This document shows, piece by piece, positions 8,209-61,238 of a stretch of DNA of 64,000 nt. Each line of letters starts with the position of its first letter. Positions within the stretch are counted from its first letter, which is position 1. A program made the translations under genes and the position numbers. The notes below the pieces were generated by a model, which was not told the DNA's origin, searched no databases, and saw only the letters and a list, made by a program, of their open reading frames with translations. Source of the stretch: a virus (lineage: Duplodnaviria; Caudoviricetes); IMG/VR virus record IMGVR_UViG_3300037312_001875, positions 1 through 64,000 of that record; one strand, 5' to 3'.

Positions 8209-10248
8209 TTACCATTCGATGACCTGACGAAGAGTAACGTCGACTGTTCCGTTACTCATCATGTTGTTTGTTGCAATTCCTGTGAGTTTTTCGTTATAGA
8301 CATTGATTAGTTTGATGGTTAGCGCCGCACCGTTGGTATTTAAATAGCTACTAACAGAAAATGCGTGTAATTTGCCATTATAGGCTTCAGCAGCATATTT
8401 CGGTATGACGGTATAGTTGAAATCATAATCATTATAGGAAGCACCGAAGTCGTAATCACTCCAGACCAAGATCCATCCGTTCCGGCAATCAGACAATTTT
8501 TTGGTTGGAACCACTTCTGCAACCGTTCCTGGGGATACTTCTCCCATTAGATTATTGCCTGACCACAGGACATTGGTCTTGTTGATGGTATAATCACCTC
8601 TCCAGTTCGAAGCATTCGCATACACAGGAGCCGTTGCCACCCAGCTGATATAGTTCGACCCCACCCGGCAGTTGTTACAATTGTTATTGATTCCGATGCC
8701 ATAACGTGGTCGGTTATTTAATTTCGAGTCAATGTAATTATCGTCCATTTCAATGCTGTCGCTATAAACGAGACCGATGGCATCGCGGGTATTATCGGAT
8801 TGATAAGCGATGTTGTTTAAACGATTTCCCCTGATGCTTCCGCCCTTCGAATAGGACATATAGATACCCGTATAAGGGATATTTGCAAGCGTATTGTTGC
8901 GGATGTTGACGTACCCTGTATATCCTAGATTTTTAAAAGTATCATCCAGTTCCGATACATAAATTCCTTCATATTGCGTGGATTCGATTCTATTATTCTC
9001 TACCGTTGCATTTAAGCAGTTATAGAGGACTACACCCCGTTGTACATCGCTTAACTGATTGTCCCGAACAACCACGTTTTTCGCCCACGTCATCTGAATC
9101 GCATTTCCTGTGGACTTTATGCTGTCTGGTTGTACATCCGGAGCAGCCCCTCGATCGAATGTATTGTTGGTAAAGCGGATATTATCCCAATAGCCAATAC
9201 CGTTTGTTCCAGCCCACCCTCTTAATACGAATGTAGAAGATATAGTACCTACAAAGTGATTTTCTGTAACGTTCATATACGAACCACTTTGGGGTTCTTT
9301 GTCGGCATGTACCATATCTTTTGTAGCGGGATCATACACCCAAGTTTGGAAACCATCATCTGCAGAACAAAGAATATCATTTTTACAGCCAATAAACGTA
9401 TTTCCTGACACTTTGCAGTTTTTAAATTTGAAGTTCCGAATCCCTGCGTAAGTCATCCCCTCAAACGTATTATTGATGATTTTTACGTCCTCCACATATT
9501 CATCATGAACAGAGGAATGATTTCCAATTCCAGTTGCTACGGGCCCCATGCCAGCCGTACCGCTCGAACCAAAATAACAGTTTTGTATGGTTATATTTTT
9601 GACGGATTTCCCGCTAAAATCACCGGTGCCTCCTGACCCTAGTTTGGTAAAAGGAGCTATCTGGATGGCTTCGGCATAGTCCCTTGATTGATCAGTGGTG
9701 GCATCTTTATAGCCCAAAAAATTACAGTTATCTATAAGAACATTTTCAAGCGAGGCTAGATCAAGGGAATGGTTAGACTTTACATCCTTGAAGGTGATAT
9801 TACGGAACGTGATATCACGACCCCGTGTAAAAGCAAACATGTTATAACTAGTGGAGTCAGGACCGGAGAGGACATTGCCATCCCAAGTTCCTCCTTCAAT
9901 GGTGATATTTCCATGCCCTGAATAAGAATCTGTTGGATCTGTAAGCGTGTCAGCGTTACTTGGATAATTGGCTAAAAACGAACCTCTTACAAATCCACGA
10001 AGCATCCGCGCATTTTGGTGAAGGATCAGCTGCACATTTCTTTTGATGAGCAACTGAGAACCAATCAAATAATATCCATCAGGTACTAAGACGGTGCCCC
10101 CGCCTCTAGAAAAAGCTAAGTCCAAGGCTTTTTGGAGAATTGGACCGTCATTAGAGATCCCATCCCCCATCGCACCAAGTGTCTTCACGTTGATTTCCTG
10201 GTCTTCTAAAATTCTAAACCGTTTCGTAATGGAACCTGAAAAGCCCAT
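8209..10248 (-). CDS. Beta-helix (pectin-lyase-like) tailspike
   Basis: INVKTLGAMGDGISNDGPILQKALD...VPDGYYLI, many parallel beta-helix repeats, C-terminal LSDCRNGWILVWSDYD fibre-tip domain. Confidence 0.75.
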   Translation of the reverse strand: MGFSGSITKRFRILEDQEINVKTLGAMGDGISNDGPILQKALDLAFSRGGGTVLVPDGYYLIGSQLLIKRNVQLILHQNARMLRGFVRGSFLANYPSNADTLTDPTDSYSGHGNITIEGGTWDGNVLSGPDSTSYNMFAFTRGRDITFRNITFKDVKSNHSLDLASLENVLIDNCNFLGYKDATTDQSRDYAEAIQIAPFTKLGSGGTGDFSGKSVKNITIQNCYFGSSGTAGMGPVATGIGNHSSVHDEYVEDVKIINNTFEGMTYAGIRNFKFKNCKVSGNTFIGCKNDILCSADDGFQTWVYDPATKDMVHADKEPQSGSYMNVTENHFVGTISSTFVLRGWAGTNGIGYWDNIRFTNNTFDRGAAPDVQPDSIKSTGNAIQMTWAKNVVVRDNQLSDVQRGVVLYNCLNATVENNRIESTQYEGIYVSELDDTFKNLGYTGYVNIRNNTLANIPYTGIYMSYSKGGSIRGNRLNNIAYQSDNTRDAIGLVYSDSIEMDDNYIDSKLNNRPRYGIGINNNCNNCRVGSNYISWVATAPVYANASNWRGDYTINKTNVLWSGNNLMGEVSPGTVAEVVPTKKLSDCRNGWILVWSDYDFGASYNDYDFNYTVIPKYAAEAYNGKLHAFSVSSYLNTNGAALTIKLINVYNEKLTGIATNNMMSNGTVDVTLRQVIEW

Positions 10249-10658: not shown

Positions 10659-13600
10659 ATGCTGATACCTAACGGTTTGACGTTGCAGATAAAGAACCTT
10701 GAGCTCATCAATCGGGCGCTTGGGGATCAAGTACTCGAACTTAATGAAACGACGTATATAAACTTTCTGACGACCATGCAATTGCGTAAGGCGATTGTCT
10801 TGCATAACAACAAAAAGATTGTCATTCTGACGCCTATCCCACAATCGGTATTGGACTTGTTGGAAGAACCGGAAATTCCTTATGAAGATGACCCCGATCC
10901 GGCAATCAGTTTGTTTTATCGGGATGAATTTTTAAAATACAAAGCAGAAATTGAATCGGACTATGCACTAAAATCTTGGGTCGAGGAACGCATTGTAGAA
11001 GTGAACACGGGGGGAACGGTTGATATCTCCTCTAAGGCGGATAAGACATACGTGGACACGCAGCTTTCTAAGAAAACGGATAAAACCTACGTGGACGCGG
11101 AACTCTCCAAGAAAACGGACAAAGGGTATGTGGATGGTGAAGTAGCGAAAAAGATTGATAAAGCCTATGTGGACAATGCGCTCTCTGCGAAGACCGACAA
11201 GACTTACGTCGATGGCAAACTGGCAGAAAAATCTGATACGACCGTTGTCGAAGCCAAAGCAGATAAAACATATGTCGATAAGGAGTTAGAGCTAAAAGCC
11301 TCCAAAACGTATGTGGAGAACCGTATCATTGAAGTCAATTCAGGCGGCACAATTGATGTCTCCCATCTGGCTCAAAAAACTTATGTGGATACCGAATTAG
11401 AAAAAAAAGCCGATATCTCATATGTGGACAACCAAGTAGCATCTAAATCGATTTATTATGAAGGGGCGACTCCTCCAGAGGATACAAACCTGATTTGGGT
11501 CGATACCAGCGATGAGGACATCGATGAGGTTATGAAGACCGACTTGGGGAATGAAATCAAGAATACAGTCGCTGCTATTAAAACAAAGGTGGATGCGCTT
11601 GAATATGCCTTGGATTATGAACTCGATCCGGGTTATTTCAAAGGGATACGGCCTGGTTCCGATGGAACATCGACAAACACTGATCCCAACGCACCTGATT
11701 TAGGGGATGGCGCAGAAGGAACCGTTGGGCACATCCTCGTCAAAAGAGGGTATAAGGCGGATATTGAAAACCTGCAAGAAGGGGAATTTGGTTTTTGCAT
11801 TGATACGGAGGAGCTGTACATTGGAAACAAAGGAAGGTTGCGTCTGATTGCGAAGGTTGGAGGAACCGGCGGCAGTGGCGGAAGCGGAAATGTGACCGCC
11901 GATTACGTGGAACTAATCTCGGAGAGCGGTAAAAAATACCGATTATCCGTCAATGATGCGGGAGAGCCGATGATTTTAAGCACAGATGCCGCGACCATTA
12001 ATCTTCCTGACCCAGCAGACCCTCTGAGCGCCGGTCGATTCCAAGGTTTGTTTATAAATAAGGTGTATGGCGGCGGTGCGAGGAATACCAACGATACAGT
12101 AGTTTCTCATAGCTTTATAGAATTATACAATTCAACCGAAGCAACGATGAATCTCCGGGGTTTATCCCTTCAATATGGGGAGTACTTACAGCCGTGGAAA
12201 GTACTCGAATTGGAAGGAGAAATTAAGCCATACAGTTCATTTCTTGTAAGGTGCGCACAACATTCCGATCCGTACCGTCGCTCTGTTCGATGCAAAGTAT
12301 TCGACTTTGACATGGGATGGGACATTCCTATTTCGGACAATGGATTTAAGGTGTATCTATGTGTAGGAACAACGGCGTCCACTTATGTTAACCCTGCTAA
12401 TACCGATGGACAAAAGACAAAAGCCCCTGGCTATATCAATTTGTTCGGTGTGGGGGGCGAAGACATCACCCGCCCGATTGACGGATTTGAAAAAGGATTC
12501 CTGCAACTGGTGAATAAAAATCGGATGATTAAACGCAAATATTCCGAGGATGTTATCTTTGCTTTTTCTAATACCGGGGACAATTCATATGATATCGATT
12601 ATGTGGATATGAGAACTGCAGACCTGAATATGTACTCACCTCGTTCCAGCAAATTCGGTCAATGGGATTATGCGTATGACCAGATTCCTTTGGATACATC
12701 AAGCCCGAACGTAATCAGCCTTAGTTTTGGCTACGACGGCGATACGACTCGTACCTTCACATGGCAATCCCAGCCAACTGATAAGGGGTATCTCAAATAT
12801 AAGAGAAAGGGCGATCCTGATTGGATCACCGTCCCTTCGACCAAAAAATTCATTGCTCACCCAGACCATGTGGATGTGACAGTTCATGGAGTGATTGTGA
12901 AAAATTTGGTACCCGGTACCACTTATGTATACAAAGCAGGGTACGAAGGGCATTGGAGCGATGAATATGAACATACGGTCATAGATGCGAGAAGTACAAG
13001 CCGCCCAATCAAAATGGTGTGGACGACCGACCAGCAAAGTTGGAATGGGATGGAGTACACAGCATGGGCAAAAGCCAATGCCTATATCGAGAAAAATGAA
13101 ACCTATGATTTCATCTTGAATAGTGGCGACCGCACCCAAAACGCAAACCGCTCCTTTGAATGGCGTGGTTACTTCGAATCAGCGAAACAAAATTTGGCCA
13201 CCCACGTGGAGATGTCGACGGTTGGAAACAATGACTTGGTAGATAAGCTGTACAGTTATGCGTATTCCTATTACTCAACGATTGAAAACAGCCCATATCC
13301 TTCTGTTTATAGCTGGAATTATGGATATACCCACTTTATTTGTTTAGACTCGAACATCCTGACGGAACCATTGGATCCCACCAAGTTCATTCGAGGAACC
13401 GCTGAACAAATTGAATTCGTTAAAGCAGATATGGCGAAACCGGAAAATCAAAAACGATGGGTAGTTGCGTTCATGCATGAATCCAGCTATACCATTGTAA
13501 GGGCGAAGAAGTGTGAACCGTTTATTGCTGCTCTTTATGATGCGGGAGTGGATGTCGTATTATGCGGTCACCATCATTGTTACACTCGTTCTTATCGAAT

Positions 13601-13904
13601 GGGTAAACTCAACGGCACAAAGGATGTTATTGATGATGCCAATGGCGTTTACTGGTTAATGATGCAGGCGACTGGCTATAAGTTAAGCGGGAAAACAGCT
13701 CCAGCCACAGTTGCCCCTTGGAGAGCGGTTTATGAAAAACCGGGTGATCCTTGCTATGGGACGCTCACGTTTTCTTGGGATAAGATTGAATACCATGCAT
13801 ATCGCCTGACAAACATCATGCCGCTCATCGATAACGTAGGCAAGGAAGTGGTTCCGATTGAGTTCGATTCGTTGACCATCCTTCCAAAGGCGAATAGACG
13901 ATAG
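10659..13904 (+). CDS. Multidomain virion protein: putative head-docking domain, KxDKTYVD stalk, Mtd_N-like, lamin-tail domain, FN3, metallophosphoesterase
   Basis: 13-aa KADKTYVD repeats; KRG...LQEGEFGFCIDTEELYIG; LFINKVYGGG...FIELYN; TDQQ, GDRTQ, GNND, FMH and GHHH phosphoesterase motifs. Confidence 0.75.
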   Translation: MLIPNGLTLQIKNLELINRALGDQVLELNETTYINFLTTMQLRKAIVLHNNKKIVILTPIPQSVLDLLEEPEIPYEDDPDPAISLFYRDEFLKYKAEIESDYALKSWVEERIVEVNTGGTVDISSKADKTYVDTQLSKKTDKTYVDAELSKKTDKGYVDGEVAKKIDKAYVDNALSAKTDKTYVDGKLAEKSDTTVVEAKADKTYVDKELELKASKTYVENRIIEVNSGGTIDVSHLAQKTYVDTELEKKADISYVDNQVASKSIYYEGATPPEDTNLIWVDTSDEDIDEVMKTDLGNEIKNTVAAIKTKVDALEYALDYELDPGYFKGIRPGSDGTSTNTDPNAPDLGDGAEGTVGHILVKRGYKADIENLQEGEFGFCIDTEELYIGNKGRLRLIAKVGGTGGSGGSGNVTADYVELISESGKKYRLSVNDAGEPMILSTDAATINLPDPADPLSAGRFQGLFINKVYGGGARNTNDTVVSHSFIELYNSTEATMNLRGLSLQYGEYLQPWKVLELEGEIKPYSSFLVRCAQHSDPYRRSVRCKVFDFDMGWDIPISDNGFKVYLCVGTTASTYVNPANTDGQKTKAPGYINLFGVGGEDITRPIDGFEKGFLQLVNKNRMIKRKYSEDVIFAFSNTGDNSYDIDYVDMRTADLNMYSPRSSKFGQWDYAYDQIPLDTSSPNVISLSFGYDGDTTRTFTWQSQPTDKGYLKYKRKGDPDWITVPSTKKFIAHPDHVDVTVHGVIVKNLVPGTTYVYKAGYEGHWSDEYEHTVIDARSTSRPIKMVWTTDQQSWNGMEYTAWAKANAYIEKNETYDFILNSGDRTQNANRSFEWRGYFESAKQNLATHVEMSTVGNNDLVDKLYSYAYSYYSTIENSPYPSVYSWNYGYTHFICLDSNILTEPLDPTKFIRGTAEQIEFVKADMAKPENQKRWVVAFMHESSYTIVRAKKCEPFIAALYDAGVDVVLCGHHHCYTRSYRMGKLNGTKDVIDDANGVYWLMMQATGYKLSGKTAPATVAPWRAVYEKPGDPCYGTLTFSWDKIEYHAYRLTNIMPLIDNVGKEVVPIEFDSLTILPKANRR

Positions 13905-13915
13905 GAGGAGAGTAC

Positions 13916-16900
13916 ATGTCGATTAAAGTCTTTAATAAAGAGAAAAAGGAATGGGAAAAGAAAACGTCTATGTTGGCCAATAACCTGAAGTTTGAAGATG
14001 TAGAAGGGAACTTCGAATCGGAGAACGTAGGAGGAGCCTTCAAGGAAGTAGCTGAATCCATTAAAACGATAAAGAACGATGTAAAGTACATCTATGAAAA
14101 CGGAACAATCGGCGGCGGCAGCGGCGGTGGAGGCGGAGGAGCTTCCACTCCTGTCGTAACCATTGACGGAGCAACAGATTATCTCGTTAATTCGGATGAG
14201 ACGCTAGATATCTACTATTATTTTACTTCTCCGAATCCAGGTAACGGAGAAGCCAACCTGACATGGGGCAGCAAAATCGAAAAACCGACCATTCCGCAAG
14301 GACGAAACAAATGGACAGTTGGTCCGTTTCCTCGAGGAACACATAACCTGACAATTACAGTCTTAGATAAACAAGGTTTTTTTAGTACACCTGTTACTGT
14401 TAAGGTTATCTCGGGTTCCCTTGCTATTACGTCTCCTTTTAGCGATAGCAAGGATTTCACACTGAATGATGACATCGCCATCCCCTATACGGTTCTCACA
14501 GAAGTAAATGAATCCGTCTTGTTGGAATATACATTCAACGGAGTGACAACAACCGTTGGTGCTAATATTGGGGACAATGTACTGAATCTCGGGAAACTTC
14601 CTTTCATGGGGATCAGCTCATTGCGGATGAAGGTTAAAAATACTAAATATACCTCTAATGAACTGAAATATACGTTGGTAGCGACCGACTCATTGAACCT
14701 ATTCATGAGTACGAGCTGGGATAAGCCAACCATAGACGTCGGTAAGAACATTCAGCTCGACTACCGAATTTCGATGAAGGGGCAATACTCTTTCAATACC
14801 GACTACTATATAGATGGAGTCCTACTGACAACAGCGAAAACTTTCCCAGGTGTAAACTTCTGGAACGTGGGAACGAACATGAGTAAGGGACCGCATACCT
14901 TTAAAATCGTAACCACGACCGTTGACGGTGCCCACACTGCCGAATTGACGATTAACCTAGAAGTCGTTACTTCTGGTTATGAGCCTTATCAACCGGTGCG
15001 AACTGGCCTAATAGCGGAATTTGATGCTACAGGTAAAATCAATAACAGTTCAACCCAGGCGAAATGGGAGGATACAAGCGGAAAAGGAGTCACATGTAAC
15101 CTATATAACTTCAACTATTTCTCGAATGGATGGATCGATAATACACTGGTTTGCTCTGGTAAGTCCTATGCAGAAATCAATCTACAGCCGTTCCTTCAAG
15201 GGATAAAGAACGGTTTCACGCTTGATGTCCTGTGCAAGATCAAAAATGTTGGGGATGTGGAAGCGAGGGTACTTAGCTGTAAGGCGCCACTCACTCCTTT
15301 CCAAGGTTTTGAAATTACACCGTCTTCCGCTTCCATAGCCACTAAACGAAGTGAAATGGTGAGTGTTCAATTGCAAGATGACACTTGGACGAAAATTACG
15401 TATGTGGTGAATCGAACCGACCGATTGATGACGATTTATGAAAATGGAGTTATCTCGGCTGTTACCTATTTACAGCCAAATGATATTAACCTAGAAAACT
15501 ATCAAGATGAATTCACCTTTGATGGCAAGATTTATGTGGGTGCTAGAAAAGATCCTGACGGGAAAATGGTCAACTTCTCTGTTTCAGCCGTCAAAAACAT
15601 CCGTGTTTACGACCGTGCCTTGACGGATGCCGATGTTTTAACCAACTACATCGCGGACTTTAAGGATGAAACCGAACAAACAGCGTTACGTGACTTGAAT
15701 TCGAATGATGAAGGGATGCCGAAGATCACCTTTACCGGTAAGTTTGACGGGATGGATGAAAACTCAGAACGTCAGGCGCAAATCTCCTATGAAGACCCGA
15801 AAAACCCTAACAAGCGTTTTGTTAAAGACTTCTGCTGGGTCAGCTGGCAGGGGACGTCCTCCAAAAACTATCCGGTAAAAAACTGGACAATCAAGTTGAT
15901 GGATGGAGCCGTACCAACCACCAACTATGCACCGAAGGATGAGTGGAGGCCGGAGAGTCGTTGGACATTAAAGGCAAACTTCATGGATAGTTCCAATGCC
16001 AATAACGTTGGCACCAACAAATTTATCTATGATTTCTTCAAGCCATATCCATATCCGAACCAGGTAAAAGATCCAACAACCCGGATGAACGTAGATGGAT
16101 TCCCTGTACGTCTTATCATGAATGGGCAGGACATGGGGATTTACACATGGAACATTGACCGTTATGCCAACAATAACTATGGATTTGAAACGTTCAATGC
16201 CGATGGAACCATCAGCCGACACCCAAATGCGGTCTCTTATGAGGTTGCCGTAAACGGAACTTCCGGTGCTGCCGCGTTCATGGACGATTCATGGGATAGT
16301 GTTCGGTCCGAATTTAAGAGCCGTTATAACTATCGTGGTGAAGAATCCGCCGTGACGGAAACGGTACTCGTTGATGGTATTGGCACCAAAGTTTTGAAGA
16401 CGGGTTCTCATAATGAATTGCAGACCTTGGTGACATGGGTTAAAAACAGCACTGACGACACCTTCCGTTCCGAGTTGGAACAGCATTTTAGCAAACGTCA
16501 CCTGATTGACTATTATTTGATTGCGTATGTACTGGGGATGGTTGATAACTTAGGGAAAAACATGGTATTGTCCACTTGGGGTAAAAACAATGAAGGAAAC
16601 ACCATTTGGTATCCGTCCTTTTACGACTGTGACTCTTTATTCGGTTTGAACAACTCAGGAATCATTGCCTTCGATGCAGGTCTTGATATGGATAAAGGGG
16701 ATTACAATACATCTCGAAGCAATTTGTGGGTGAAATTAAACCGCATGTTCGGAAATGAAATTTCGGAACGCTATAAGGAGCTCCGCCAAAACAGAACGAT
16801 AGATGGAAAAGATGCACCGCCGATTTTCAGTTATGAGAATATCACTTCTTATGTCATGGATGAAGTTATTGATGGGATCGGCCAAAAATACTATAACCAA

Positions 16901-19900
16901 GATGCCCGCATCAAGTATTTGAACGAAGCAGGTTTACAATGGTTATATGCGTGTAACGGTTCGAGAAAGGAATTTACGGAAAGATGGCTGAAGGAACGCT
17001 TTATTTATATGGACAGCGTTTTTGGATTCAATCAGGAAGTAAATAATAACGCCGTTATTCGTTCCTATAAGAGAGGACAACTTACTCTGAAAGTAAAAAC
17101 CTACTCTCCTCAATGGATTCAAATCCGTTTCTCGGATGCCACCAATGACATCATGAGAAAGTATTGTGATAAGGATGAATGGACCGAGTTCTCGATGTAC
17201 GTTGATAATGGTACAGATAACAATATGACGGTCTATGGATGCAGCAACGTTATGTATCTCGATGGATTGAAGGATTTGGACGTTCGTTCGCTCAACCTTG
17301 GTAATGCTAGAAAACTCGTTGAGCTGGACATCAGCAATTCCACAAGGATTCAGTCCATTTCACTCGGACAAAACGAATATCTGCAAAAAGTTTTGGTCAA
17401 CGGATGTACTAACTTAGGTTATCAGGTTGATGATAAAACATTGGATCTATCCCGATGTACGACACTGAAAGAAATCGATGCCAGCAATACTCATATTGCG
17501 AACGTCGTCTTTAACCAAACGGGTGGGGTAATCGAGAAATTAAATTTATCGAATACCGATATCACCGCCTTCAAGATTAACGGTCAGGAATATCTGCCAG
17601 TGATTTCTTTAGATGGATGCTTATCGTTGGCTGAACTAACCATCACGAATTGTAACGGACTTCAAACCGTGACAATGGCGAACACCAAACTCGCAAGTGT
17701 CGTCATCAATGGTTGCGATAATCTGACCTATATTGACGTTTCTAATACCAAGTCACTGCGAGCGTTGGATTTAAGCGGATGTCCGAACTTGCTGACATTA
17801 AAGATGGCAGGTGTCTCGAATCCGAGTATCACGGATCTCGATTTGACTTATTCTCTGAAATTGCAAGAATTGGATATTAGTTCGACCAACTATATCTCGA
17901 ATGTCACGTTCGGTCAGTATACCGAAGGCGGAGTATTGAAGAATTACAATGCGCTCAAAATTTTCAGATGCGATAACTCTGCCATCAAATCGATTAAGTA
18001 TGGAAAAGCATCCCTTGCTCCGACTTACATGGATTTGGGAGGATTAAGTTTAACGTATCTTAGTTTCACCGGCTGTTCGAGTGTAACGGATATTCGAAAC
18101 ATTAATCTCGTTTCCACTAATGAGGATCCGTTCAACAACTGTACGAACCTTACCTCCATTCAAGGAACGGTTAAACTAGTTGGCAGCACAAGCCGTGCGT
18201 TCTTCGGATGCGGCAATTTAACGGTACTACCTACTTTGGATTTATCGGAAATGTCCAGTATGTCCGAAACGTTTTTAGGATGTGTGAAATTAACAATGGC
18301 AAGCCTCACTCAGATTTTAGTGAACTCAGGAATCACGAGCAAGTTCACCTATGCTTGGAAGGCTTTTGGTGGATGTACTGGAATTACCGGACCTTTGCCT
18401 AGCAATCTATTTAGTAAATGCACAGGAATGGGGAACCTTCAGGAATTCTTCACTGGATGTACTGGGATAAACGGAACATTGCCTGCTGGGTTAATGCAAC
18501 CTATGACGGTTTTAACGAATGCCAGTTATTTATTTTCAGGCACTAGTATTACCGGAGAAGTTCCGATGGACTTCCTTCGTTACAACACGAAATTAACTGA
18601 AGTCGGTAGGATGTTTAATGGCACGAAAGTTACGTATGCTTATTTGGATAATCTCTTCTATTACAATACAGCATTAAACGGTGCCTACGGGATGTTTGCA
18701 GGCTGTACTTCATTACAATTGACGCCGACAGAAAATATGTTTTTAATGAATAAACAGCTTACATCGGTAGGGCAATTCTTTAACGGATGTTCAGGTGTTG
18801 TTGGTCAAATCCCAAGAGGAATATTCAACAACATCGGAGGAAGCAATTCCACCTCCAATAACTTAAACAACGTGGAATGGTTCTTTGCGGGAACCTCCAT
18901 AAGTGGAGAAATCCCGGCTTATGTGTCTGATTCTGACAAAGGAATGCTAGATAAAAGTCCTAATTTAGATTCAGCGCAATATTTGTTCCAGAATTGTACT
19001 GGTTTAACAGGTTCCATTCCGACCGATTTCTTGAAAAACAACAAAAAATTAACCAAAATAGCTGGTTTATTTTATGGATGCAATGGTTTGACTGGAGTAA
19101 TTCCGCCGAATTTATTAAAAGGGAAAACAGAAGTATGGACCATTGCTCAGTTGTTTAGAGGATGTAATAAACTATCAGGAAACATCCCTATCGGATTTTT
19201 AGATGACAATACGAAATTGACGGATGTTCAAGAAATGTTCTACGGATGCAGTGGCTTAACAGGAGAGATTCCAAAACGGATTTCTACTTGGAGCAAGGCA
19301 CCTAGTCCACTAGACCCGAATATTCTAATTGATGTCGAAAATGTCACTCAGTATGGCTTGTTTGATAAATGTACAAATCTCGTGAACATGTCGGCTGTTT
19401 TTTACCAATGTAAACAATTACGTTCGGAGATTCCACCTACCTTGTTCATGAACGCTTCTAAAGTAGTGAATATGTCGAGCATGTTTTACCAGTGCTATTA
19501 TTTATACGGACCACTTGATAAGGATTTATTTATAAATTGTCGGGCAGTCCAAAATATGAATAATATGTTCCAGGATTGTGTAGGATTAAATAATCCTGAA
19601 CTCGATGTCGACCGACCATACGCCTTGCCGGTGGAATTATTCCAAAACTGTTTTAACCTCACAACCGTTAGTTATATGTTCAGTATGGTCACCGTTGGCA
19701 ATCCGAACCCTAGCCGTTTAAATGGGGCATTGCCGACGAACTTGTTCTCAAACTGTACGAAGCTTACCAATATTGATGGATTTATGTATGGTTGTGGACA
19801 GATTACAGGTGCTTTAGAAAGTGATCTGTTCCGTATGAACACAAGACTCGCGAATGCTTTTTATGCTTTCAATGGTACAGGAATCACTTCCATCGGAAGT

Positions 19901-20089
19901 CAATTGTTCTTCACTTGTACGGTGCTCAAGAACCTATCCTTCACGTTTGCAAGCTGTACCTCTCTTCGTGGAGCGGTTCCAGAATACTGGCTGGAGTCCT
20001 GCCCAGTCAAAGCGACTACGTTTGCTGCTTGTTACCGTGGCGACACCGCGGTCACCAACTATGCTACAATTCTTGCAGGATGGAAATAA
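13916..20089 (+). CDS. Giant protein: fibre adaptor, LamG, CotH-like kinase, LRR and BspA/DUF285-type repeats
   Basis: NFESENVGGAFKEV adaptor motif; LamG (IRVYDRALTDADV); QGTSS.NYP.KN, DNLGKNM and YDCDSLFG CotH-like motifs; LDLSGCPNL LRRs; F.GCT.LTG.IP..LF repeats. Confidence 0.75.
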   Translation: MSIKVFNKEKKEWEKKTSMLANNLKFEDVEGNFESENVGGAFKEVAESIKTIKNDVKYIYENGTIGGGSGGGGGGASTPVVTIDGATDYLVNSDETLDIYYYFTSPNPGNGEANLTWGSKIEKPTIPQGRNKWTVGPFPRGTHNLTITVLDKQGFFSTPVTVKVISGSLAITSPFSDSKDFTLNDDIAIPYTVLTEVNESVLLEYTFNGVTTTVGANIGDNVLNLGKLPFMGISSLRMKVKNTKYTSNELKYTLVATDSLNLFMSTSWDKPTIDVGKNIQLDYRISMKGQYSFNTDYYIDGVLLTTAKTFPGVNFWNVGTNMSKGPHTFKIVTTTVDGAHTAELTINLEVVTSGYEPYQPVRTGLIAEFDATGKINNSSTQAKWEDTSGKGVTCNLYNFNYFSNGWIDNTLVCSGKSYAEINLQPFLQGIKNGFTLDVLCKIKNVGDVEARVLSCKAPLTPFQGFEITPSSASIATKRSEMVSVQLQDDTWTKITYVVNRTDRLMTIYENGVISAVTYLQPNDINLENYQDEFTFDGKIYVGARKDPDGKMVNFSVSAVKNIRVYDRALTDADVLTNYIADFKDETEQTALRDLNSNDEGMPKITFTGKFDGMDENSERQAQISYEDPKNPNKRFVKDFCWVSWQGTSSKNYPVKNWTIKLMDGAVPTTNYAPKDEWRPESRWTLKANFMDSSNANNVGTNKFIYDFFKPYPYPNQVKDPTTRMNVDGFPVRLIMNGQDMGIYTWNIDRYANNNYGFETFNADGTISRHPNAVSYEVAVNGTSGAAAFMDDSWDSVRSEFKSRYNYRGEESAVTETVLVDGIGTKVLKTGSHNELQTLVTWVKNSTDDTFRSELEQHFSKRHLIDYYLIAYVLGMVDNLGKNMVLSTWGKNNEGNTIWYPSFYDCDSLFGLNNSGIIAFDAGLDMDKGDYNTSRSNLWVKLNRMFGNEISERYKELRQNRTIDGKDAPPIFSYENITSYVMDEVIDGIGQKYYNQDARIKYLNEAGLQWLYACNGSRKEFTERWLKERFIYMDSVFGFNQEVNNNAVIRSYKRGQLTLKVKTYSPQWIQIRFSDATNDIMRKYCDKDEWTEFSMYVDNGTDNNMTVYGCSNVMYLDGLKDLDVRSLNLGNARKLVELDISNSTRIQSISLGQNEYLQKVLVNGCTNLGYQVDDKTLDLSRCTTLKEIDASNTHIANVVFNQTGGVIEKLNLSNTDITAFKINGQEYLPVISLDGCLSLAELTITNCNGLQTVTMANTKLASVVINGCDNLTYIDVSNTKSLRALDLSGCPNLLTLKMAGVSNPSITDLDLTYSLKLQELDISSTNYISNVTFGQYTEGGVLKNYNALKIFRCDNSAIKSIKYGKASLAPTYMDLGGLSLTYLSFTGCSSVTDIRNINLVSTNEDPFNNCTNLTSIQGTVKLVGSTSRAFFGCGNLTVLPTLDLSEMSSMSETFLGCVKLTMASLTQILVNSGITSKFTYAWKAFGGCTGITGPLPSNLFSKCTGMGNLQEFFTGCTGINGTLPAGLMQPMTVLTNASYLFSGTSITGEVPMDFLRYNTKLTEVGRMFNGTKVTYAYLDNLFYYNTALNGAYGMFAGCTSLQLTPTENMFLMNKQLTSVGQFFNGCSGVVGQIPRGIFNNIGGSNSTSNNLNNVEWFFAGTSISGEIPAYVSDSDKGMLDKSPNLDSAQYLFQNCTGLTGSIPTDFLKNNKKLTKIAGLFYGCNGLTGVIPPNLLKGKTEVWTIAQLFRGCNKLSGNIPIGFLDDNTKLTDVQEMFYGCSGLTGEIPKRISTWSKAPSPLDPNILIDVENVTQYGLFDKCTNLVNMSAVFYQCKQLRSEIPPTLFMNASKVVNMSSMFYQCYYLYGPLDKDLFINCRAVQNMNNMFQDCVGLNNPELDVDRPYALPVELFQNCFNLTTVSYMFSMVTVGNPNPSRLNGALPTNLFSNCTKLTNIDGFMYGCGQITGALESDLFRMNTRLANAFYAFNGTGITSIGSQLFFTCTVLKNLSFTFASCTSLRGAVPEYWLESCPVKATTFAACYRGDTAVTNYATILAGWK

Positions 20090-20384: not shown

Positions 20385-20789
20385 ATGGCCGGTTCAATGA
20401 CAGATTACTTAGAAAATAAGATTCTCGAACATTCATTAGGAAAAACTTCTTTCTCTATGCCTGCTGGATGCTATATCGCATTATTCACAGCGTCTCCAAC
20501 AGATGCAGGCGGAGGTACAGAAGTATCGACTGCATCTACAGGTTATGCTCGTCAGCAAGTATTAGCTGCTGGTTGGGGTTCTGCTACAGGCGGATCCATC
20601 ACAAATGCGGCTGACATCACGTTTCCGGTTGCGACAGCTTCTTGGAACACGATTACTGCCATTGGCATTTTTGATGCGGTATCAGGTGGCAACATGCTTT
20701 GGTGGGGAACACTTGGGACTTCTAAAGCAATTGCTCAGAACGACCAGTTCAAAATTGCTGCTTCTAACTTAACAATCACACTAGACTAA
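20385..20789 (+). CDS. Phage tail-fibre-associated structural protein
   Basis: MTDYLENKILEH...YIALFTASPTDAGGGTEVS...YARQ...ITFPVAT..W..I...GIFDA.SGGNML; a widespread phage family. Confidence 0.7.
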   Translation: MAGSMTDYLENKILEHSLGKTSFSMPAGCYIALFTASPTDAGGGTEVSTASTGYARQQVLAAGWGSATGGSITNAADITFPVATASWNTITAIGIFDAVSGGNMLWWGTLGTSKAIAQNDQFKIAASNLTITLD

Positions 20790-22044: not shown

Positions 22045-24864
22045 ATGCCTATTACAGCTAGAGGTCTATGGACTTCGAATCGATTAGACGAGCGAGGGCG
22101 GTTTATATTCGGAAGTTTGGATGAACGCGGACAAACTGTAGCGGGAACTTCCACTGGAGCTGCGACTAATCCTGTTTTTGGGACAGTATCTCTTAATCCC
22201 AATCCTAGTGGATTGACTGTTACTGCCAGTGTTATTAAATTAACCCCTATGGCAAGCATTGATGGCGGAAGTTTTTTAAACACCCAGTTTACTTCTACTA
22301 TTGATGGCGGTGCTTACCAAACAACGCAATTTAATTCCGTTAAGGATGGGGGCGTCTTTAGACTGATCGACGGAGGAATATTTAACAATTCCGTTACTAC
22401 TAACACCATAGATGGAGGTGCCTTTACCGATACAACCGTAAGTAATACGAGGGATGGCGGTGCCTTTACATCTTCACCTTCTCCTTCTAAAGATTCGGAT
22501 ATCAATGGAGGTGATTTTGCAGATCCGCAGGATTCCTCCGTCGATGCTGGTGGTTTCACGGATACTCAAAACTCTTCGATTGATGGCGGTGCCTTTACGG
22601 ATATTTCTTCGGTTTCGATAGGGGCAAGTTCGACCGTTACTGCAAATGGAAGGTCGATTCTAACATCTTCGGTTACGATTACTGATTTAAGTTCTCTTGT
22701 TGTTCAACCAAGTTCGGTTCCTTCTAGTGTTTCCATAAATGCTAATACGCAGGTAACCACTTATGGAGCTGCTATCCAACAATCCTTTGTTTCCATAAGT
22801 GCTGGTACAACTATCACATCGATTGGAAACACGATACAAAATTCGTCTATATCTATTACGGCATCAGGTTCTCTCGTCTCTCAAGGAAGTTTGGTGGGAA
22901 CAACAACCAATATTCTTGATGGAGGTTCTTTTAAAAATTATGTCAGCACGAACACCGTCGATGGCGGATCCTTTACCAATACAACCGTAAGTAACACACG
23001 AGATGGCGGGGTCTTTACGTCTTTACCTTCTCCTTCTACGGGTTCCGACGTTGACGGTGGTGACTTTACTAGCCCTAACGACTCCTCAATTGATGGCGGT
23101 AATTTTACCAATCAAAATGATTCTGCTATCGATGGTGGTAATTTTGTTGATTACACCATTGTAATCAATGGCCGTTCTACTTTGATTGTATCGGGTTCTG
23201 TTTCTTCATTAGGGACGATAGATGGAGGGAACTTTGATGATCCGTCATACGATACCGTCATCGACGGTGGAAGTCCTGATGACACCGCATATGATTTTAT
23301 CATTGATGGAGGAACGTTGGACTCTATTTTTATAAGTTCGCTTTCTTCGTTAAGTGCTAAGGGTGCCGGTGTTTTAACAGGACACGTTTCAATTTCCTCC
23401 GTTGGAAATGTCGTTGGAGGTATCGCTTCATCAACCCCTGTTTCCATTGAGATTGACCCTTTACCATCGAAGGTGTTCGTAACAGGAACTGTAATCAAAA
23501 AGGGAACCATTTCTTCTTCCGGAGCAGGTACCGTTGTGGTCAGCGCCGTGGGTGAATCGGTCGTTAAAACAGTCTTGTCAGGACCGATTGCGATAAATGC
23601 ATCGAGTTCAACCCAGTCCTATGGAACGATTGATGGACAAGTATCCGCTTTAATTTTTGGAACTGGATTAGTCATGGCGGGTGGAAACGTCATTTCGTCA
23701 TCCGCTGTGATCACCAGCAATTCATCCAGTACGGTAACATTGTCCGCAATTTGTATGGCATTAGGTAATGTTTCATCTTTCGGAACCGGAGTGGTGACAA
23801 CAAACGGAAAAATCAAGGCGGTTTCAGATATCATTTCCATTACCTCAACAAGTGCAGCAACTCCATCGGGAATCTTGATCACAAAAGGTTCTGGCTCCAC
23901 TTCCGGAATAAGTTCTGTCAGTGCTAATGGAAATGTAATTGCTGGTACCGGTGCTTCTATCGCGGCGTCAAGTGCGGTCACATCATCTTCTAGATATATT
24001 GCATCTGGAACGGCGTTGCCTGCGGGCAAGAGTAACCTTACGACTGAAGAAGGAACAGTATCTTTATCAGGTCCACTCCCTATTCATGCGTCTAGTGTGT
24101 TAACAGCCTCCGCGTTCATAGTTGCTAAAAATACTGTTTCTTGTTCTGGCAAAGGAAATTTATCTGTTGTAGGCGATAGGGTCGCGATCGCGCCTTCGTT
24201 CACTTTTAATGGAAAAAGTAACATAAGCATTTCTCAAATATTGACGAGACCGGCCAACGCTTCGGTTTCAAGCAATGGCACCGTAACCGCCATTGGTAGA
24301 GTCATAAAGAGCGGAGCGATCGGCGTCAATGCTCAGGGAACGAGTACGAATGAAATCAATGGCTTTGTTATCTTAGGCGGAATCGTGAAGTTAACGGATA
24401 CAAGTAGAGTGGATAGCATTCCAATCGCTGTCCGCCTAAGCGGTTCATCGTTGAAATCGGGGGCTTCTCTGACCCTATCGTTCAACGGGGTGAGACTGGC
24501 ACAGGCTTCTTTTGCGGCAACGAGCTCGATTGCTGCCAACGATATCCGAATTCGTAGAGAAGGCTCAGCTGTTAATGGTGTTACTTCTGTTGAGATAGAA
24601 GCGATCCGAAGGACACTTAATACGGTCTTATTCGGTGGACAAACGGGAGTGACCGTTAATGGATTTACGACAACCAGAAGCAAAATCCTATTAGACTCTA
24701 AATCTTCTTTACGGACCAACGGTGGAAAAACAACTCCGGTTGATGTGGTCATCTCTGCTAAAGGCGACGTAAACCTATTCATTGGCGACAAAATTATTGG
24801 GGAAGTGAATCTTGAAGGAAATGTCGCTGGCAGTGTGAGTTTTTCGGGGATTCTAAAAAATTAA
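22045..24864 (+). CDS. Ser/Thr/Gly-rich repeat protein with about 18 IDGGxF motifs
   Basis: Two DGG clusters with an internal duplication (22408-22500 vs 22958-23040), then low-complexity beta repeats. Confidence 0.7.
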   Translation: MPITARGLWTSNRLDERGRFIFGSLDERGQTVAGTSTGAATNPVFGTVSLNPNPSGLTVTASVIKLTPMASIDGGSFLNTQFTSTIDGGAYQTTQFNSVKDGGVFRLIDGGIFNNSVTTNTIDGGAFTDTTVSNTRDGGAFTSSPSPSKDSDINGGDFADPQDSSVDAGGFTDTQNSSIDGGAFTDISSVSIGASSTVTANGRSILTSSVTITDLSSLVVQPSSVPSSVSINANTQVTTYGAAIQQSFVSISAGTTITSIGNTIQNSSISITASGSLVSQGSLVGTTTNILDGGSFKNYVSTNTVDGGSFTNTTVSNTRDGGVFTSLPSPSTGSDVDGGDFTSPNDSSIDGGNFTNQNDSAIDGGNFVDYTIVINGRSTLIVSGSVSSLGTIDGGNFDDPSYDTVIDGGSPDDTAYDFIIDGGTLDSIFISSLSSLSAKGAGVLTGHVSISSVGNVVGGIASSTPVSIEIDPLPSKVFVTGTVIKKGTISSSGAGTVVVSAVGESVVKTVLSGPIAINASSSTQSYGTIDGQVSALIFGTGLVMAGGNVISSSAVITSNSSSTVTLSAICMALGNVSSFGTGVVTTNGKIKAVSDIISITSTSAATPSGILITKGSGSTSGISSVSANGNVIAGTGASIAASSAVTSSSRYIASGTALPAGKSNLTTEEGTVSLSGPLPIHASSVLTASAFIVAKNTVSCSGKGNLSVVGDRVAIAPSFTFNGKSNISISQILTRPANASVSSNGTVTAIGRVIKSGAIGVNAQGTSTNEINGFVILGGIVKLTDTSRVDSIPIAVRLSGSSLKSGASLTLSFNGVRLAQASFAATSSIAANDIRIRREGSAVNGVTSVEIEAIRRTLNTVLFGGQTGVTVNGFTTTRSKILLDSKSSLRTNGGKTTPVDVVISAKGDVNLFIGDKIIGEVNLEGNVAGSVSFSGILKN

Positions 24865-24977: not shown

Positions 24978-25331
24978 ATGACCAAGAAGAACCAGAACTT
25001 CTCAATGGTAGCGGGCGATACCATGTTAATCAATATTGGTGTGACCGATTCTAACGGAACCCCCATTAACTTAACAGGATGTTCCATTACATGGATTGTC
25101 AAAAAGACAGTCAAAGCCCCTATCGTTTTGGTGACTAAAACGACGCAGGATGATATTGCAATTCGGGATGTCAGAAAAGGACTGTTTGTCGTAAAACTCA
25201 ACAGCCAAGATACGGCGGGATTTGATGGTCGAATGTATCACGAAGCCAAAGTAAAAGATGCTTTCGGCGATGTAGCCACGGTTGCCACTGGTTTGATCAC
25301 CTTCGTTCCGAGCGGAGCGGTGGCAACATGA
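24978..25331 (+). CDS. BppU N-terminal-like Ig-fold adaptor
   Basis: AGDT...I.VTD.NG.PINLTG.SI.W.VK...G.F.V.L...DT pattern. Confidence 0.6.
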   Translation: MTKKNQNFSMVAGDTMLINIGVTDSNGTPINLTGCSITWIVKKTVKAPIVLVTKTTQDDIAIRDVRKGLFVVKLNSQDTAGFDGRMYHEAKVKDAFGDVATVATGLITFVPSGAVAT

Positions 25332-25371: not shown

Positions 25372-26412
25372 ATGGATAAAATTTTAGTGCGCAGAGGATT
25401 AAAAGGTGATTTGCCTGACCTTGATGAAGGAGAATTCGGATATTGCACAGACACTCGTGAAGTTTTTATTGGTACTTCTACTGCTACGAATGTCCCGGTT
25501 GGAGGAGCATCAAATTTAGATGGTCTGACTGACGTCGATACGACGACAACTGCACCAACCAATGGTCAAGTGTTGAAATATGATTCTGCAACAAGCCTTT
25601 GGAAGCCGGGCACGGTGACAGGCGGTGGTGGAGGACCGACTTTAGTAGCTTCTTACACTCATACGAAGAACAAAGAGGTAGCTGTATCAGCTATTAACTA
25701 TACAGATGGCACATTCTCTTCTACCGGTCATGGATTGGCTCTTAATGACACAGTGACCATTATTCCTAACAAGGATATGGTTAATTCAGGTGTCAACGCT
25801 GGTAATGGTGGTAGCTATGTGGTTGGTTATTATCCTACGGGGATTTCCGCTAGGACTAAGTACTATGTAGTAAATCCACAGACTGACTCATTCCAATTAT
25901 CGGCTACTTCTGGTGGAGCGGCTATTGTTCCAACGAACCCGAACTCAACCGTGGACGTAACTAAGTGGCATTTTGAAAGACAGGTGGATTCTACTATCGA
26001 CTTTGGAACACTTCCAGCGGCGGGTTCGAAATTCCGAATAGTGCTTAGTGGAAAGGTGTTACGAAGCAACACAGGTCAATTAAACGTATATGCGGGTTCA
26101 TTGCAATTCCCATATACCAATTTACTTGTGTCCACCAATACTATCATGTCAGGATTCGGAAATGGCGTTTGGTCTTTAGCTGGTGACATGCACACCTACC
26201 GTGAATATGACCTTAATTCTGAGGGGTACTATTACATTCGACAAAGAGGAGTAGACTACGCTACCAATACTACTTCCGCATACACGGCTACTGTTCGTGA
26301 TAATACAGGTATTTGTCAAGATTACACATTCTTCAATAAACAAATAACAAAAATAACGATCATTAACATTGATGCGGCGAATGGTTTAACTGTCCAACTT
26401 TATAGCATGTAA
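25372..26412 (+). CDS. Fibre/receptor-binding protein with Mtd_N-like N-terminus
   Basis: ILVRRG...LDEGEFGYCTDTREVFIG; LDGLTDVD...PTNGQVLKYDS..LWKP fibre repeat. Confidence 0.7.
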   Translation: MDKILVRRGLKGDLPDLDEGEFGYCTDTREVFIGTSTATNVPVGGASNLDGLTDVDTTTTAPTNGQVLKYDSATSLWKPGTVTGGGGGPTLVASYTHTKNKEVAVSAINYTDGTFSSTGHGLALNDTVTIIPNKDMVNSGVNAGNGGSYVVGYYPTGISARTKYYVVNPQTDSFQLSATSGGAAIVPTNPNSTVDVTKWHFERQVDSTIDFGTLPAAGSKFRIVLSGKVLRSNTGQLNVYAGSLQFPYTNLLVSTNTIMSGFGNGVWSLAGDMHTYREYDLNSEGYYYIRQRGVDYATNTTSAYTATVRDNTGICQDYTFFNKQITKITIINIDAANGLTVQLYSM

Positions 26413-26459
26413 TTTATGAAGCCAATAGGAGACTGTTGGCTTTTAAAGGAGGGTAAAAA

Positions 26460-28427: not shown

Positions 28428-28501
28428 TTTTTAGAAAGCCAGCATCACTGCTGGCTTTTTTATTTTCAGCAATCTTTCTGAAAGTTTGATAGAATTCTTT
28501 A

Positions 28502-28517
28502 TAGGTATAAAGTCCTA
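28502..28517. promoter_or_regulatory. 16-bp dyad box
   Basis: TAGGTA-TAAA-GTCCTA directly followed by TAAGGAGG. Confidence 0.6.
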
Positions 28518-28531
28518 TAAGGAGGGGAAAT

Positions 28532-59885: not shown

Positions 59886-60803
59886 ATGCCAATGTCAACA
59901 CCACGTATGAACGGTGAACTTCGTGAAGAAGAGTTAGAGCTTCGCGAACTTCTATCATCTCCAACCGGTTTTGAACGCTATGCGTCAGAAAAAATGCCGG
60001 AATTTATTCAAGTTGTACGAGATTACGAGGGCTTTGTCCGTGACGTTCTTATGGTCACTGAAGTTACTCCCGAAGACCTTGTTCGTGTAGACGAAGAAGT
60101 ATTTGTCGTTTACTCGAAAGACGTTGATGCAACAGCATCCGTTATCGCTCGTTACGGCGAAGCGCCTACTCTAATGGTTAAGGGTACTACCGTGAAGGTA
60201 ACCTTCTTCCCGGTTACAACTCCACGCTTAACTATTACTCAGTGGGATCTCGACACTCAACCATACGATTTAATGCGTCGTACTCAAGAGAAGGCGGGCC
60301 AAGAGCTTTCTAAGTTAGAAGACAGAACTTTCTTAGATGCAATTGACGGCCTAATCGAATCTCCTGAAGCTGGTGGTAAGCAGCAAGTTACTCAAACTGA
60401 AACTGCTATCACTAAAGCTGGTATGTTAGCAATCAAGCAAATTTTCAGCCGTAACAACGTTGCGTTCTCATCTTATCTAATGCACCCAGCTACTTATGAT
60501 AGCTTCCTATTATGGGGCGAGGCTGAATTAGATCAATTCACCCAACGCACTGTCTTGGAAACTGGCCAGCTGCCTACGATTTGGGGTGGCTTGAAGATGA
60601 TCACAGGTATGATGATTCCTGAAAACTACGTTTATGGTCTTGCTCCGAAGGAGATTCTAGGTCGTATGCCAATCCTTCGTGATGTGACGATTGACGTACA
60701 ACGAATCCCTCAGACACAGGATAAGGAATTGTTGGCTTACGAGTACATCGGCATGTACATTCACAGCCATTTAGCGGTTTCTCGACTTGAACTTGCATCC
60801 TAA
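59886..60803 (+). CDS. Major capsid protein (HK97 fold)
   Basis: 305 aa; QELSKLEDRTFL helix, YLMHPATY, MIPENYVY.LA, YEYIGMYI; followed by a strong terminator. Confidence 0.75.
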   Translation: MPMSTPRMNGELREEELELRELLSSPTGFERYASEKMPEFIQVVRDYEGFVRDVLMVTEVTPEDLVRVDEEVFVVYSKDVDATASVIARYGEAPTLMVKGTTVKVTFFPVTTPRLTITQWDLDTQPYDLMRRTQEKAGQELSKLEDRTFLDAIDGLIESPEAGGKQQVTQTETAITKAGMLAIKQIFSRNNVAFSSYLMHPATYDSFLLWGEAELDQFTQRTVLETGQLPTIWGGLKMITGMMIPENYVYGLAPKEILGRMPILRDVTIDVQRIPQTQDKELLAYEYIGMYIHSHLAVSRLELAS

Positions 60804-60857: not shown

Positions 60858-60890
60858 AAACGAGGCGGAACCTAATCCGCCTCGTTTTTT
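60858..60890 (+). terminator. Intrinsic terminator after the MCP
   Basis: AAACGAGGCGGA-ACCTAA-TCCGCCTCGTTTTTT. Confidence 0.8.
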
Positions 60891-60917: not shown

Positions 60918-61238
60918 ATGGCAAAAGACCTATGTTCATTAGTCATTGTGAATTTAAAAAACATTACGAGGATTGTCGGTAATAACATTGTTCCTGCAAA
61001 AGGCAGTACGTTAGTTCATTTTAGAGATTTAAACCAATTGAAGTTGGCTCTTAAATTGCAAGAGAATAATAGAATCGTGATTCAGTCAGAAATCCCTGCT
61101 GATCTCTTAGCAAAAGTTGATCCTGTCTTTTCTATGCAACAAGCGGTTGAGCCTGTTGTAGAAGAAACGCCGGTGGAAGAAGTACCAGTAGAAGAAGAAG
61201 TGAAACCGAAAAAGCCACGTACAAAGAAAAATCAATAA
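60918..61238 (+). CDS. Small head-associated protein, homologous to the N-terminus of 10659..13904
   Basis: 20/59 gapless identity to that N-terminus; low-complexity VEEVP/KPKKPRTKK tail. Confidence 0.65.
   Translation: MAKDLCSLVIVNLKNITRIVGNNIVPAKGSTLVHFRDLNQLKLALKLQENNRIVIQSEIPADLLAKVDPVFSMQQAVEPVVEETPVEEVPVEEEVKPKKPRTKKNQ

Follow-up and report, generated by a model that had tools for sequence, protein, structure and literature searches.

Modular phage fibres, in which a virion-specific N-terminal anchor is joined to a swappable distal part, are well known. Capsid-anchored proteins such as T5 pb10, phi29 gp8.5 and T4 Hoc are built in a comparable manner, with a small anchor domain followed by an extension that displays a distal domain. 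Here we describe a candidate system of this kind in a 64,000-nucleotide stretch of viral DNA (Duplodnaviria; Caudoviricetes; IMG/VR virus record IMGVR_UViG_3300037312_001875), hereafter the window, which corresponds to bases 16626-80625 of a 116-kb IMG/VR viral contig with a CheckV completeness of 29%. Our subject is P0001, a 1081-aa fibre phosphoesterase encoded at 10659..13904 (open reading frame (ORF) list, tblastn and Pfam; coordinates written with two dots are on the + strand). Its N-terminal domain has a paralogue in P0002, a 106-aa protein encoded at 60918..61238, directly after the gene of the major capsid protein (MCP). P0001 is probably a virion fibre that displays a purple acid phosphatase (PAP)-like metallophosphoesterase on a portable N-terminal anchor module.

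The body of P0001 has a described counterpart in phage G. Residues 269-1080, which make up 75% of the query, are 64.4% identical in tblastn to phage G gp352, annotated as a metallophosphoesterase. The order of Mtd_N-like, lamin-tail (LTD), PAP_N and Metallophos domains is the same in both proteins, as is the GNND motif, and from residue 269 on P0001 is the orthologue of gp352. The two differ at the N terminus, where gp352 has a 55-residue helical segment and P0001 an anchor module and stalk of 268 residues. Overall, the window phage is unevenly related to phage G, with 64% and 59% identity at the gp352/gp353 pair versus 25% at the capsid. A search of phage G for the anchor domain gave nothing convincing (best E 0.03 over 26 columns). 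No mention of gp352 was found in the phage G papers searched.

The first-pass annotation of this DNA had aligned the N termini of P0001 and P0002 by hand, with 20/59 identities. Both ORFs exist as described there, of 1081 and 106 aa, and the homology of their N termini is confirmed. BLASTP aligns P0001 residues 8-65 with P0002 residues 7-64 without gaps (20/58 identities, 34/58 positives, E 1e-8), the hand count having included a mismatched first pair. When 137 ORFs were compared with one another by BLAST, the match was recovered (E 5e-6), and a six-frame search of the 116-kb contig with P0001 residues 1-74 returned just two copies, P0001 itself (E 4e-44) and P0002 (E 1.7e-6). When the fibre-type and small-protein subfamilies represented by these two domains are compared profile to profile, hhalign gives a probability of 98.8% and an E of 9.9e-17 over 68 columns.

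In P0001, the anchor-type domain spans residues 4-70 (10668..10868; BLASTP, hidden Markov model (HMM), AlphaFold2 (AF2) model and tree) and belongs to the fibre-type 'IPNG' subfamily; the paralogous domain of P0002 comprises residues 3-69. P0001 residues 4-70 match the seed HMM at E 1e-32, P0001 itself being in the seed, and a 52-sequence HMM at ~3e-22, and P0002 residues 3-68 match the seed HMM at E 1e-38. The AF2 model of P0001 residues 4-70 has a predicted local distance difference test (pLDDT) score of 84 and the order strand-strand-helix-strand-helix. Only the P0001 copy was modelled; because the sequence and profile similarity is this strong, the two segments share one fold, on which the first-pass annotation had made its proposal depend.

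A family HMM built from four sequences spanning both types was run against 1.84 billion representative proteins and matched 50 of them at E < 1e-3, including four repeat artefacts. The domain lies at the extreme N terminus (residues ~4-70) in 46/46 of the remaining matches. Fibre-type members start with M-x-I-P-N-G-(L/G)-T and carry, beyond a short linker, a conserved 'SGLFYRDEF' segment. Both marks are present in alignments of P0001, whose start follows M-x-I-P-N-G-L-T-L and whose downstream segment reads LFYRDEF. The fibre-type domain heads at least eight unrelated payloads, including the metallophosphoesterase of P0001, GDSL esterases (P0048, P0050), a GH113 glycosidase (P0055), Phage_RBD_prop, a five-bladed receptor-binding propeller (P0049), PTR plus fn3 (P0047), a 1678-aa coiled coil with a terminal discoidin domain (P0058) and RHS-like repeats (P0029).

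Split and fused forms of the same arrangement occur. Each of the stand-alone fibre-type genes, encoding 112-182 aa (P0035, P0037, P0043 and P0038), shows translational coupling to a payload gene. In two of these payloads an Mtd_N head comes first, and P0029 is a fused version of P0037 and its neighbouring gene. In the coupled pairs (L015 3816-7264, L024 374-1248, L025 477-2140 and L026 1948-2857), stop and start overlap in 3/4 and are separated by a 2-base gap in 1/4; the coupled payloads are a 1036-aa Mtd_N-headed fibre, an Mtd_N-headed RHS-like protein, a 416-aa Gly-rich protein and an XepA-like protein. We considered and rejected a C-terminal 'DGG-x-F' (xGGxx) of the small fibre-type proteins as a motif, given that it coincides with the in-frame Shine-Dalgarno of the coupled downstream gene.

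Anchors are exchanged among payloads as well. A search with the catalytic part of P0001 gathered 92 proteins including P0001, which is the only one of them to carry the anchor domain (1/92). Other family members have unrelated N termini, for example Mtd_N at residue 1 (P0063, P0065) or BppU_N (P0068, P0096); a Pfam scan of P0001 gave no match to BppU_N (PF10651). The case for this domain as the end that attaches to the virion rests mainly on the combination of payload swaps among anchors, anchor swaps among payloads, and split and fused forms. By these properties and by its N-terminal placement, the domain of P0001 behaves as the anchoring module that the first-pass annotation had proposed.

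That annotation had further suggested that the domain was copied from the post-MCP gene, and this part of the proposal was not supported. A maximum-likelihood tree of 52 domains from both classes gathers all 14 fibre-type domains (P0001 and 13 from other phages) in a single branch (support 99/94), within which P0001 is nested, and P0002 lies deep inside the small (post-MCP) class. Similarly, the P0001 domain is 45% identical to fibre-type domains versus ~30-34% to P0002 of its own genome. It is thus no recent copy of the post-MCP gene, and the two domains are old paralogues.

To judge from these searches, the anchor family is new, with no Pfam, PHROG, PDB or cultured-phage relative found. Profile scans of the window proteins placed the domain in no Pfam or PHROG family, and a PDB profile search with the small-protein family gave nothing relevant. 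Searches by tblastn with P0002, P0019 and P0038 against 50,697 phage records returned zero matches, and pattern scans of IMG/VR, GTDB genomes and JGI metagenomes yielded no confirmed locus for either subfamily. Some candidate relatives were set aside. A PHROG scan of 27 small-class members gave two marginal low-count families (best E 7e-5, 2/27), which we judged spurious, and the best BFVD fold match (E 0.026) was phage G gp163, whose sequence has no convincing likeness and was missed by the family HMM. The P0001 gene was found in soil and rhizosphere DNA sequencing runs, on identical, low-depth contigs. There was no allele or cassette variation among these identical low-depth fragments, and no RNA run was listed with the gene.

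Behind the anchor domain of P0001 lies an acidic proline-rich linker with a conserved 'SLFYRDEFLKY' segment (10869..10988; alignments A2 and A8), which is common to fibre-type members only and lacking in P0002. A motif scan identified a stalk of KxDKTYVD-type repeats between two I-x-E-V-N-x-G-G-T motifs (residues 113-262; 10995..11444). It contains eight K-x-D-K-T-Y-V-D-type repeats at residues 126-220 and degenerate copies to ~258, spaced mostly by 13 residues with a single 9-residue step from 191 to 200. The PHROG tail-fibre families phrog_24919 and phrog_1446 match residues 167-222. Next is an internal Mtd_N-like segment (residues 361-390; 11739..11828; Pfam PF18454, 27.1 bits, above cut-off), which according to BLAST forms the extreme N terminus of the products of four further fibre genes in this phage (25372-, 26460-, 28532- and one beyond the window). 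A lamin-tail-like beta-sandwich, LTD, follows (residues 463-533; 12045..12257); its Pfam PF00932 score of 27.6 bits is below the cut-off of 34.3, and LTD is recorded for most homologues and coincides with beta strands of pLDDT > 90 in the P0001 model.

The C-terminal part is a PAP-like two-domain enzyme (12705..13901; Pfam, Foldseek and motifs), in which the FN3-like N-domain corresponds to Pur_ac_phosph_N PF16656 (residues 683-773; E 1e-12, 48.9 bits vs a cut-off of 30) and the metallophosphoesterase core to Metallophos PF00149 (residues 804-975; E 3.5e-9, 37.8 bits vs a cut-off of 21.5). The domain order given in the first-pass annotation was therefore correct, with Mtd_N, the sub-threshold LTD, Pur_ac_phosph_N and Metallophos arranged after the repeat stalk. 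Its description of P0001 as fibre-like with a PAP-like metallophosphoesterase is supported, the enzyme part by Pfam families above cut-off and by Foldseek matches to PAPs at E 1e-24. An AF2 model of residues 269-1081 (pLDDT 84.5) matches the plant PAPs 1kbp, 1xzw and 6hwr (E ~1e-23 to 1e-24, template modelling (TM) score 0.74-0.76) and Bacillus subtilis PhoD (E 7e-15) in Foldseek.

The active-site motifs of P0001 are TDQQ (790-793), GDRTQN (823-828), GNND (856-859), MHE (939-941) and GHHH (970-973). As had been read earlier, GNND (13224..13235) replaces the usual GNH(D/E). Across 91 aligned family members the motifs are TDQQ, GDxxQN, GNND(L), MH(E/L)xxY and GH(H/N)H, and GNNDL is present in every one of the commonest motif variants. 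Conservation of GNND across the phage clade thus marks it as a fixed trait, not a lesion or decay of the P0001 gene. By motif alignment, the putative ligands that are conserved are Asp in both TDQQ and GDxxQN, Asn in GNND, His in MHE and the pair in GHxH; Gln occupies the position of the PAP iron-binding Tyr (GDxxQN), and on our reading of the motifs 6/7 PAP metal-ligand positions are kept. Motif conservation this strong points to a catalytic centre that is altered yet functional. Because of the structural likeness to PhoD, a phosphodiester-linked envelope polymer, for example the teichoic acid of a Bacillaceae host, would be a reasonable target of the enzyme. A host in the Bacillaceae is suggested by genes of Bacillus type, among them SASP and YozD, in related contigs.

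We propose that P0001 is a fusion of a gp352-type body with an N-terminal module specific to its lineage, which consists of a ~65-residue alpha/beta domain, an acidic linker, the 'LFYRDEF' segment and a 13-residue-repeat stalk. The module would fix its payload to one virion site. In the small proteins this payload would be a flexible acidic tether with a small terminal piece of basic or HeH-like character, and in fibre-type proteins an enzyme or a binding domain. Outside the particle, the P0001 enzyme would act on an envelope polymer with phosphodiester linkages, for example teichoic acid, and its chemistry may be a conserved variant in which Asn replaces the usual His and Gln the PAP Tyr.

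The gene ahead of P0002 is the major capsid gene (59886..60803), as the earlier reading of the window had it. Its product matches phrog_2522 (E 4e-21) and, in tblastn, phage G gp27 (E 4e-18), to which it is 25% identical. An upstream 154-aa protein was considered as a relative of the phage G decoration protein gp26 and rejected, the similarity being not significant (E 0.07) and the role resting on position only. Between the MCP and P0002 genes there is a terminator-like hairpin with a 12-bp stem and then a U-run (60858..60887). An equivalent hairpin and U-run are present, despite differing sequence, in four related contigs (L005 6851-6984; L006 5166-5283; L014 5190-5314; L017 3919-4003). That the hairpin is kept in 5/5 contigs folded, the window and these four, suggests that capsid transcripts end or are attenuated there.

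The small protein is encoded directly after the MCP gene and ahead of neck/sheath genes in the window and in 5/5 related contigs examined. Proteins of the small class are mostly 106-278 aa long, with two of 340 and 404 aa, and consist of the anchor domain, an acidic disordered tether of ~20-300 residues and an end piece. The end piece of ~55 residues is conserved, and its nearest neighbours in a language-model search are HeH, Rho_N and SAP clusters at weak scores. It reads 'PEWYLTYEQVE-MTK-ELL-W...KSKNA-E...VH-FL' in most post-MCP proteins (P0007, P0014-P0028, P0023, P0059). In P0002 the N-domain is followed by an acidic Pro/Glu linker and a basic C-terminal tail, KPKKPRTKKNQ; it is a short variant, in which the tether ends in this tail without the ~55-residue end piece. 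Two related viral contigs (G001 and G002; loci L017-L020) are complete at 174-175 kb, one with terminal repeats, and their capsid proteins are 68-69% identical to that of the window.

As to where the module docks, a site at the head or neck could be called either way; taken separately, the capsid surface itself is rather unlikely, and so is the tail or baseplate. A complex prediction with MCP, the upstream 154-aa protein, the P0002 N-domain and the P0001 N-module gave no answer (score 0.00) and weighs neither way.

If P0001 were a tail or baseplate fibre, which we consider rather doubtful, the module would plug into a tail, collar or baseplate part, and the small protein would be a neck or tail accessory using the same kind of socket. 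Tail-type genes do surround the P0001 gene: a tail spike at 8209-10248 (phrog_2234, E 3e-92), the 134-aa Gp80 fibre-I monomer at 20385-20789 (Pfam PF23140, podophage GP4 fibre I protein gp80, E 3.5e-46), a BppU_N-like 117-aa protein at 24978-25331 (E 1.6e-4, below cut-off) and three receptor-binding genes with a common Mtd_N-type head at 25372-30949, a fourth lying outside the window. In a jumbo phage, however, gene neighbourhood is loose evidence, and the other tail fibres of this phage use a different N-terminal head. The homologue P0068, of the BppU_N form, is encoded right after Dit in a siphophage tail block and is followed by a 2072-aa CotH/LRR protein. The BFVD fold matches of the N-domain are small proteins, one of them probably encoded by an ArV1 gene just ahead of the tail sheath gene, but these matches are weak (E 0.03-0.3).

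The first-pass annotation had favoured a head fibre, in which the P0001 N-domain would dock on the capsid shell at the site of the small protein and compete with it. We regard this as unlikely. It is consistent with the location of the genome's only paralogue of the P0001 N-domain, which adjoins the MCP gene on its 3' side, a position conserved in relatives. In addition, Mtd_N heads come first in the other fibres of this phage and P0001 buries its Mtd_N-like segment behind a new module, which suggests a different attachment point; phage G has no convincing small protein, and its gp352 has no module. On the other hand, the small protein is placed by gene order, not by its location in the particle, and the P0002 gene, behind a conserved terminator-like hairpin and together with neck/sheath genes, would equally fit a low-copy neck or tail part. 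The two domains are in long-separated clades and ~30% identical, so the subfamilies need not share a partner or a site. The enzyme family is anchored to the baseplate elsewhere, by BppU_N beside Dit, and the P0001 gene itself sits amid tail-spike and tail-fibre genes. We are similarly sceptical of a broader form of head display, a plug-in system on the head or neck of soil jumbo phages, in which one docking domain would be reused to hang interchangeable enzymes and binders (phosphoesterase, esterases, mannanase-type glycosidase, receptor-binding propellers) away from the baseplate.

Some observations weigh against a portable virion anchor irrespective of its site. In fold searches, no solved structure or known anchor family stood out for the N-domain, with a best E of 0.27 for its model in Foldseek against the PDB and a best Z of 4.3 in a VIA fold search, where the matches were ribosomal proteins, GINS, lambda gpFI-C and YqbF. 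Matches this weak, or their absence, would still be compatible with a capsid-binding fold. No cultured phage among the tblastn-searched records carries the domain. Both complete 174-kb relatives have a diverged small protein, and no fibre-type copy was detected in them, from which it follows that the two are not obligately linked. Finally, the N-terminal domain, a putative virion binder, might instead serve oligomerisation or assembly. An oligomerisation or assembly element, or a tag loading proteins into the prohead for ejection, would suit a small N-terminal domain that is common to otherwise unrelated proteins and has no identified binding partner, but such a role is very improbable given payloads typical of external fibres (long repeat stalks, a receptor-binding propeller, discoidin, PTR repeats), small-class acidic disordered tethers of up to ~300 residues, which are unlikely within a DNA-filled head, and the established attachment of phage fibres usually by their N terminus.

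The P0001 gene has that of a second large protein as its neighbour. Eleven bases 3' of the P0001 gene begins the gene of a 2057-aa CotH/LRR/DUF285 protein (13916..20089; Pfam families). This protein is 58.6% identical over 100% of its length to phage G gp353, which has the same position 3' of the phosphoesterase gene. A two-gene cassette of phosphoesterase and ~2050-aa CotH/LRR/DUF285 protein, the partner being longer in crAss002, is present on four very different phage backbones (window 10659-20089; L003 5836-14427; L022 5713-14412; L023 10001-19431). Its carriers are the window phage, phage G (gp352/gp353), crAss002 (gp19/gp20) and a siphophage in which the pair is located after Dit. Among the genes downstream of the pair, PHROGs labels the family of the Gp80 fibre-I monomer 'head protein', and a 939-aa protein encoded at 22045-24864 has 16 [ILVRK]DGGx(F/Y) repeats.

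In conclusion, the putative anchor family reported here is unusual in that the capsid gene block conserves a free-standing paralogue of it. Should the docking site be the head or neck, the module would offer a modular route to enzyme display on the capsid and a small tag (~65-100 residues) for decorating such particles. We also identify a phage clade of PAP-like phosphoesterases that has an Asn-for-His, Gln-for-Tyr site and is always paired with a giant CotH/LRR protein. Phage G relatives, a siphophage and crAss-like phages all have this pair, which points to an envelope-modifying activity, so far unstudied, in very different phages.

Compared with known systems, the P0001 enzyme has the same two-domain fold as plant PAPs (e.g. 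kidney bean, 1kbp) and PhoD (2yeq) at ~15% identity, and it differs from PAPs in having Gln for Tyr, Asn for the GNH(D/E) His and a position at the end of a fibre. A weak fold match links the N-domain to that of YqbF from the B. subtilis skin prophage (2hjq; Z 3.2, 49 residues). The YqbF gene likewise follows the capsid gene and YqbF ends in an HeH-type domain, like the small-protein class; the PDB profile search did not return 2hjq at E up to 10 and so provided no sequence-profile link to YqbF, and we treat the match as a lead only. The proposed layout of P0001 is like that of T5 pb10, phi29 gp8.5 and T4 Hoc; the Foldseek and VIA searches gave no homology or fold match to these. BppU_N of lactococcal phage TP901-1, Mtd_N heads and branched tail-spike adaptors follow the same logic as the P0001 anchor, a virion-specific N-terminal piece combined with interchangeable payloads. 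The P0001 anchor is distinct from all of these in that it has no sequence or detectable fold relation to them and is accompanied by a free-standing paralogue in the head gene block.

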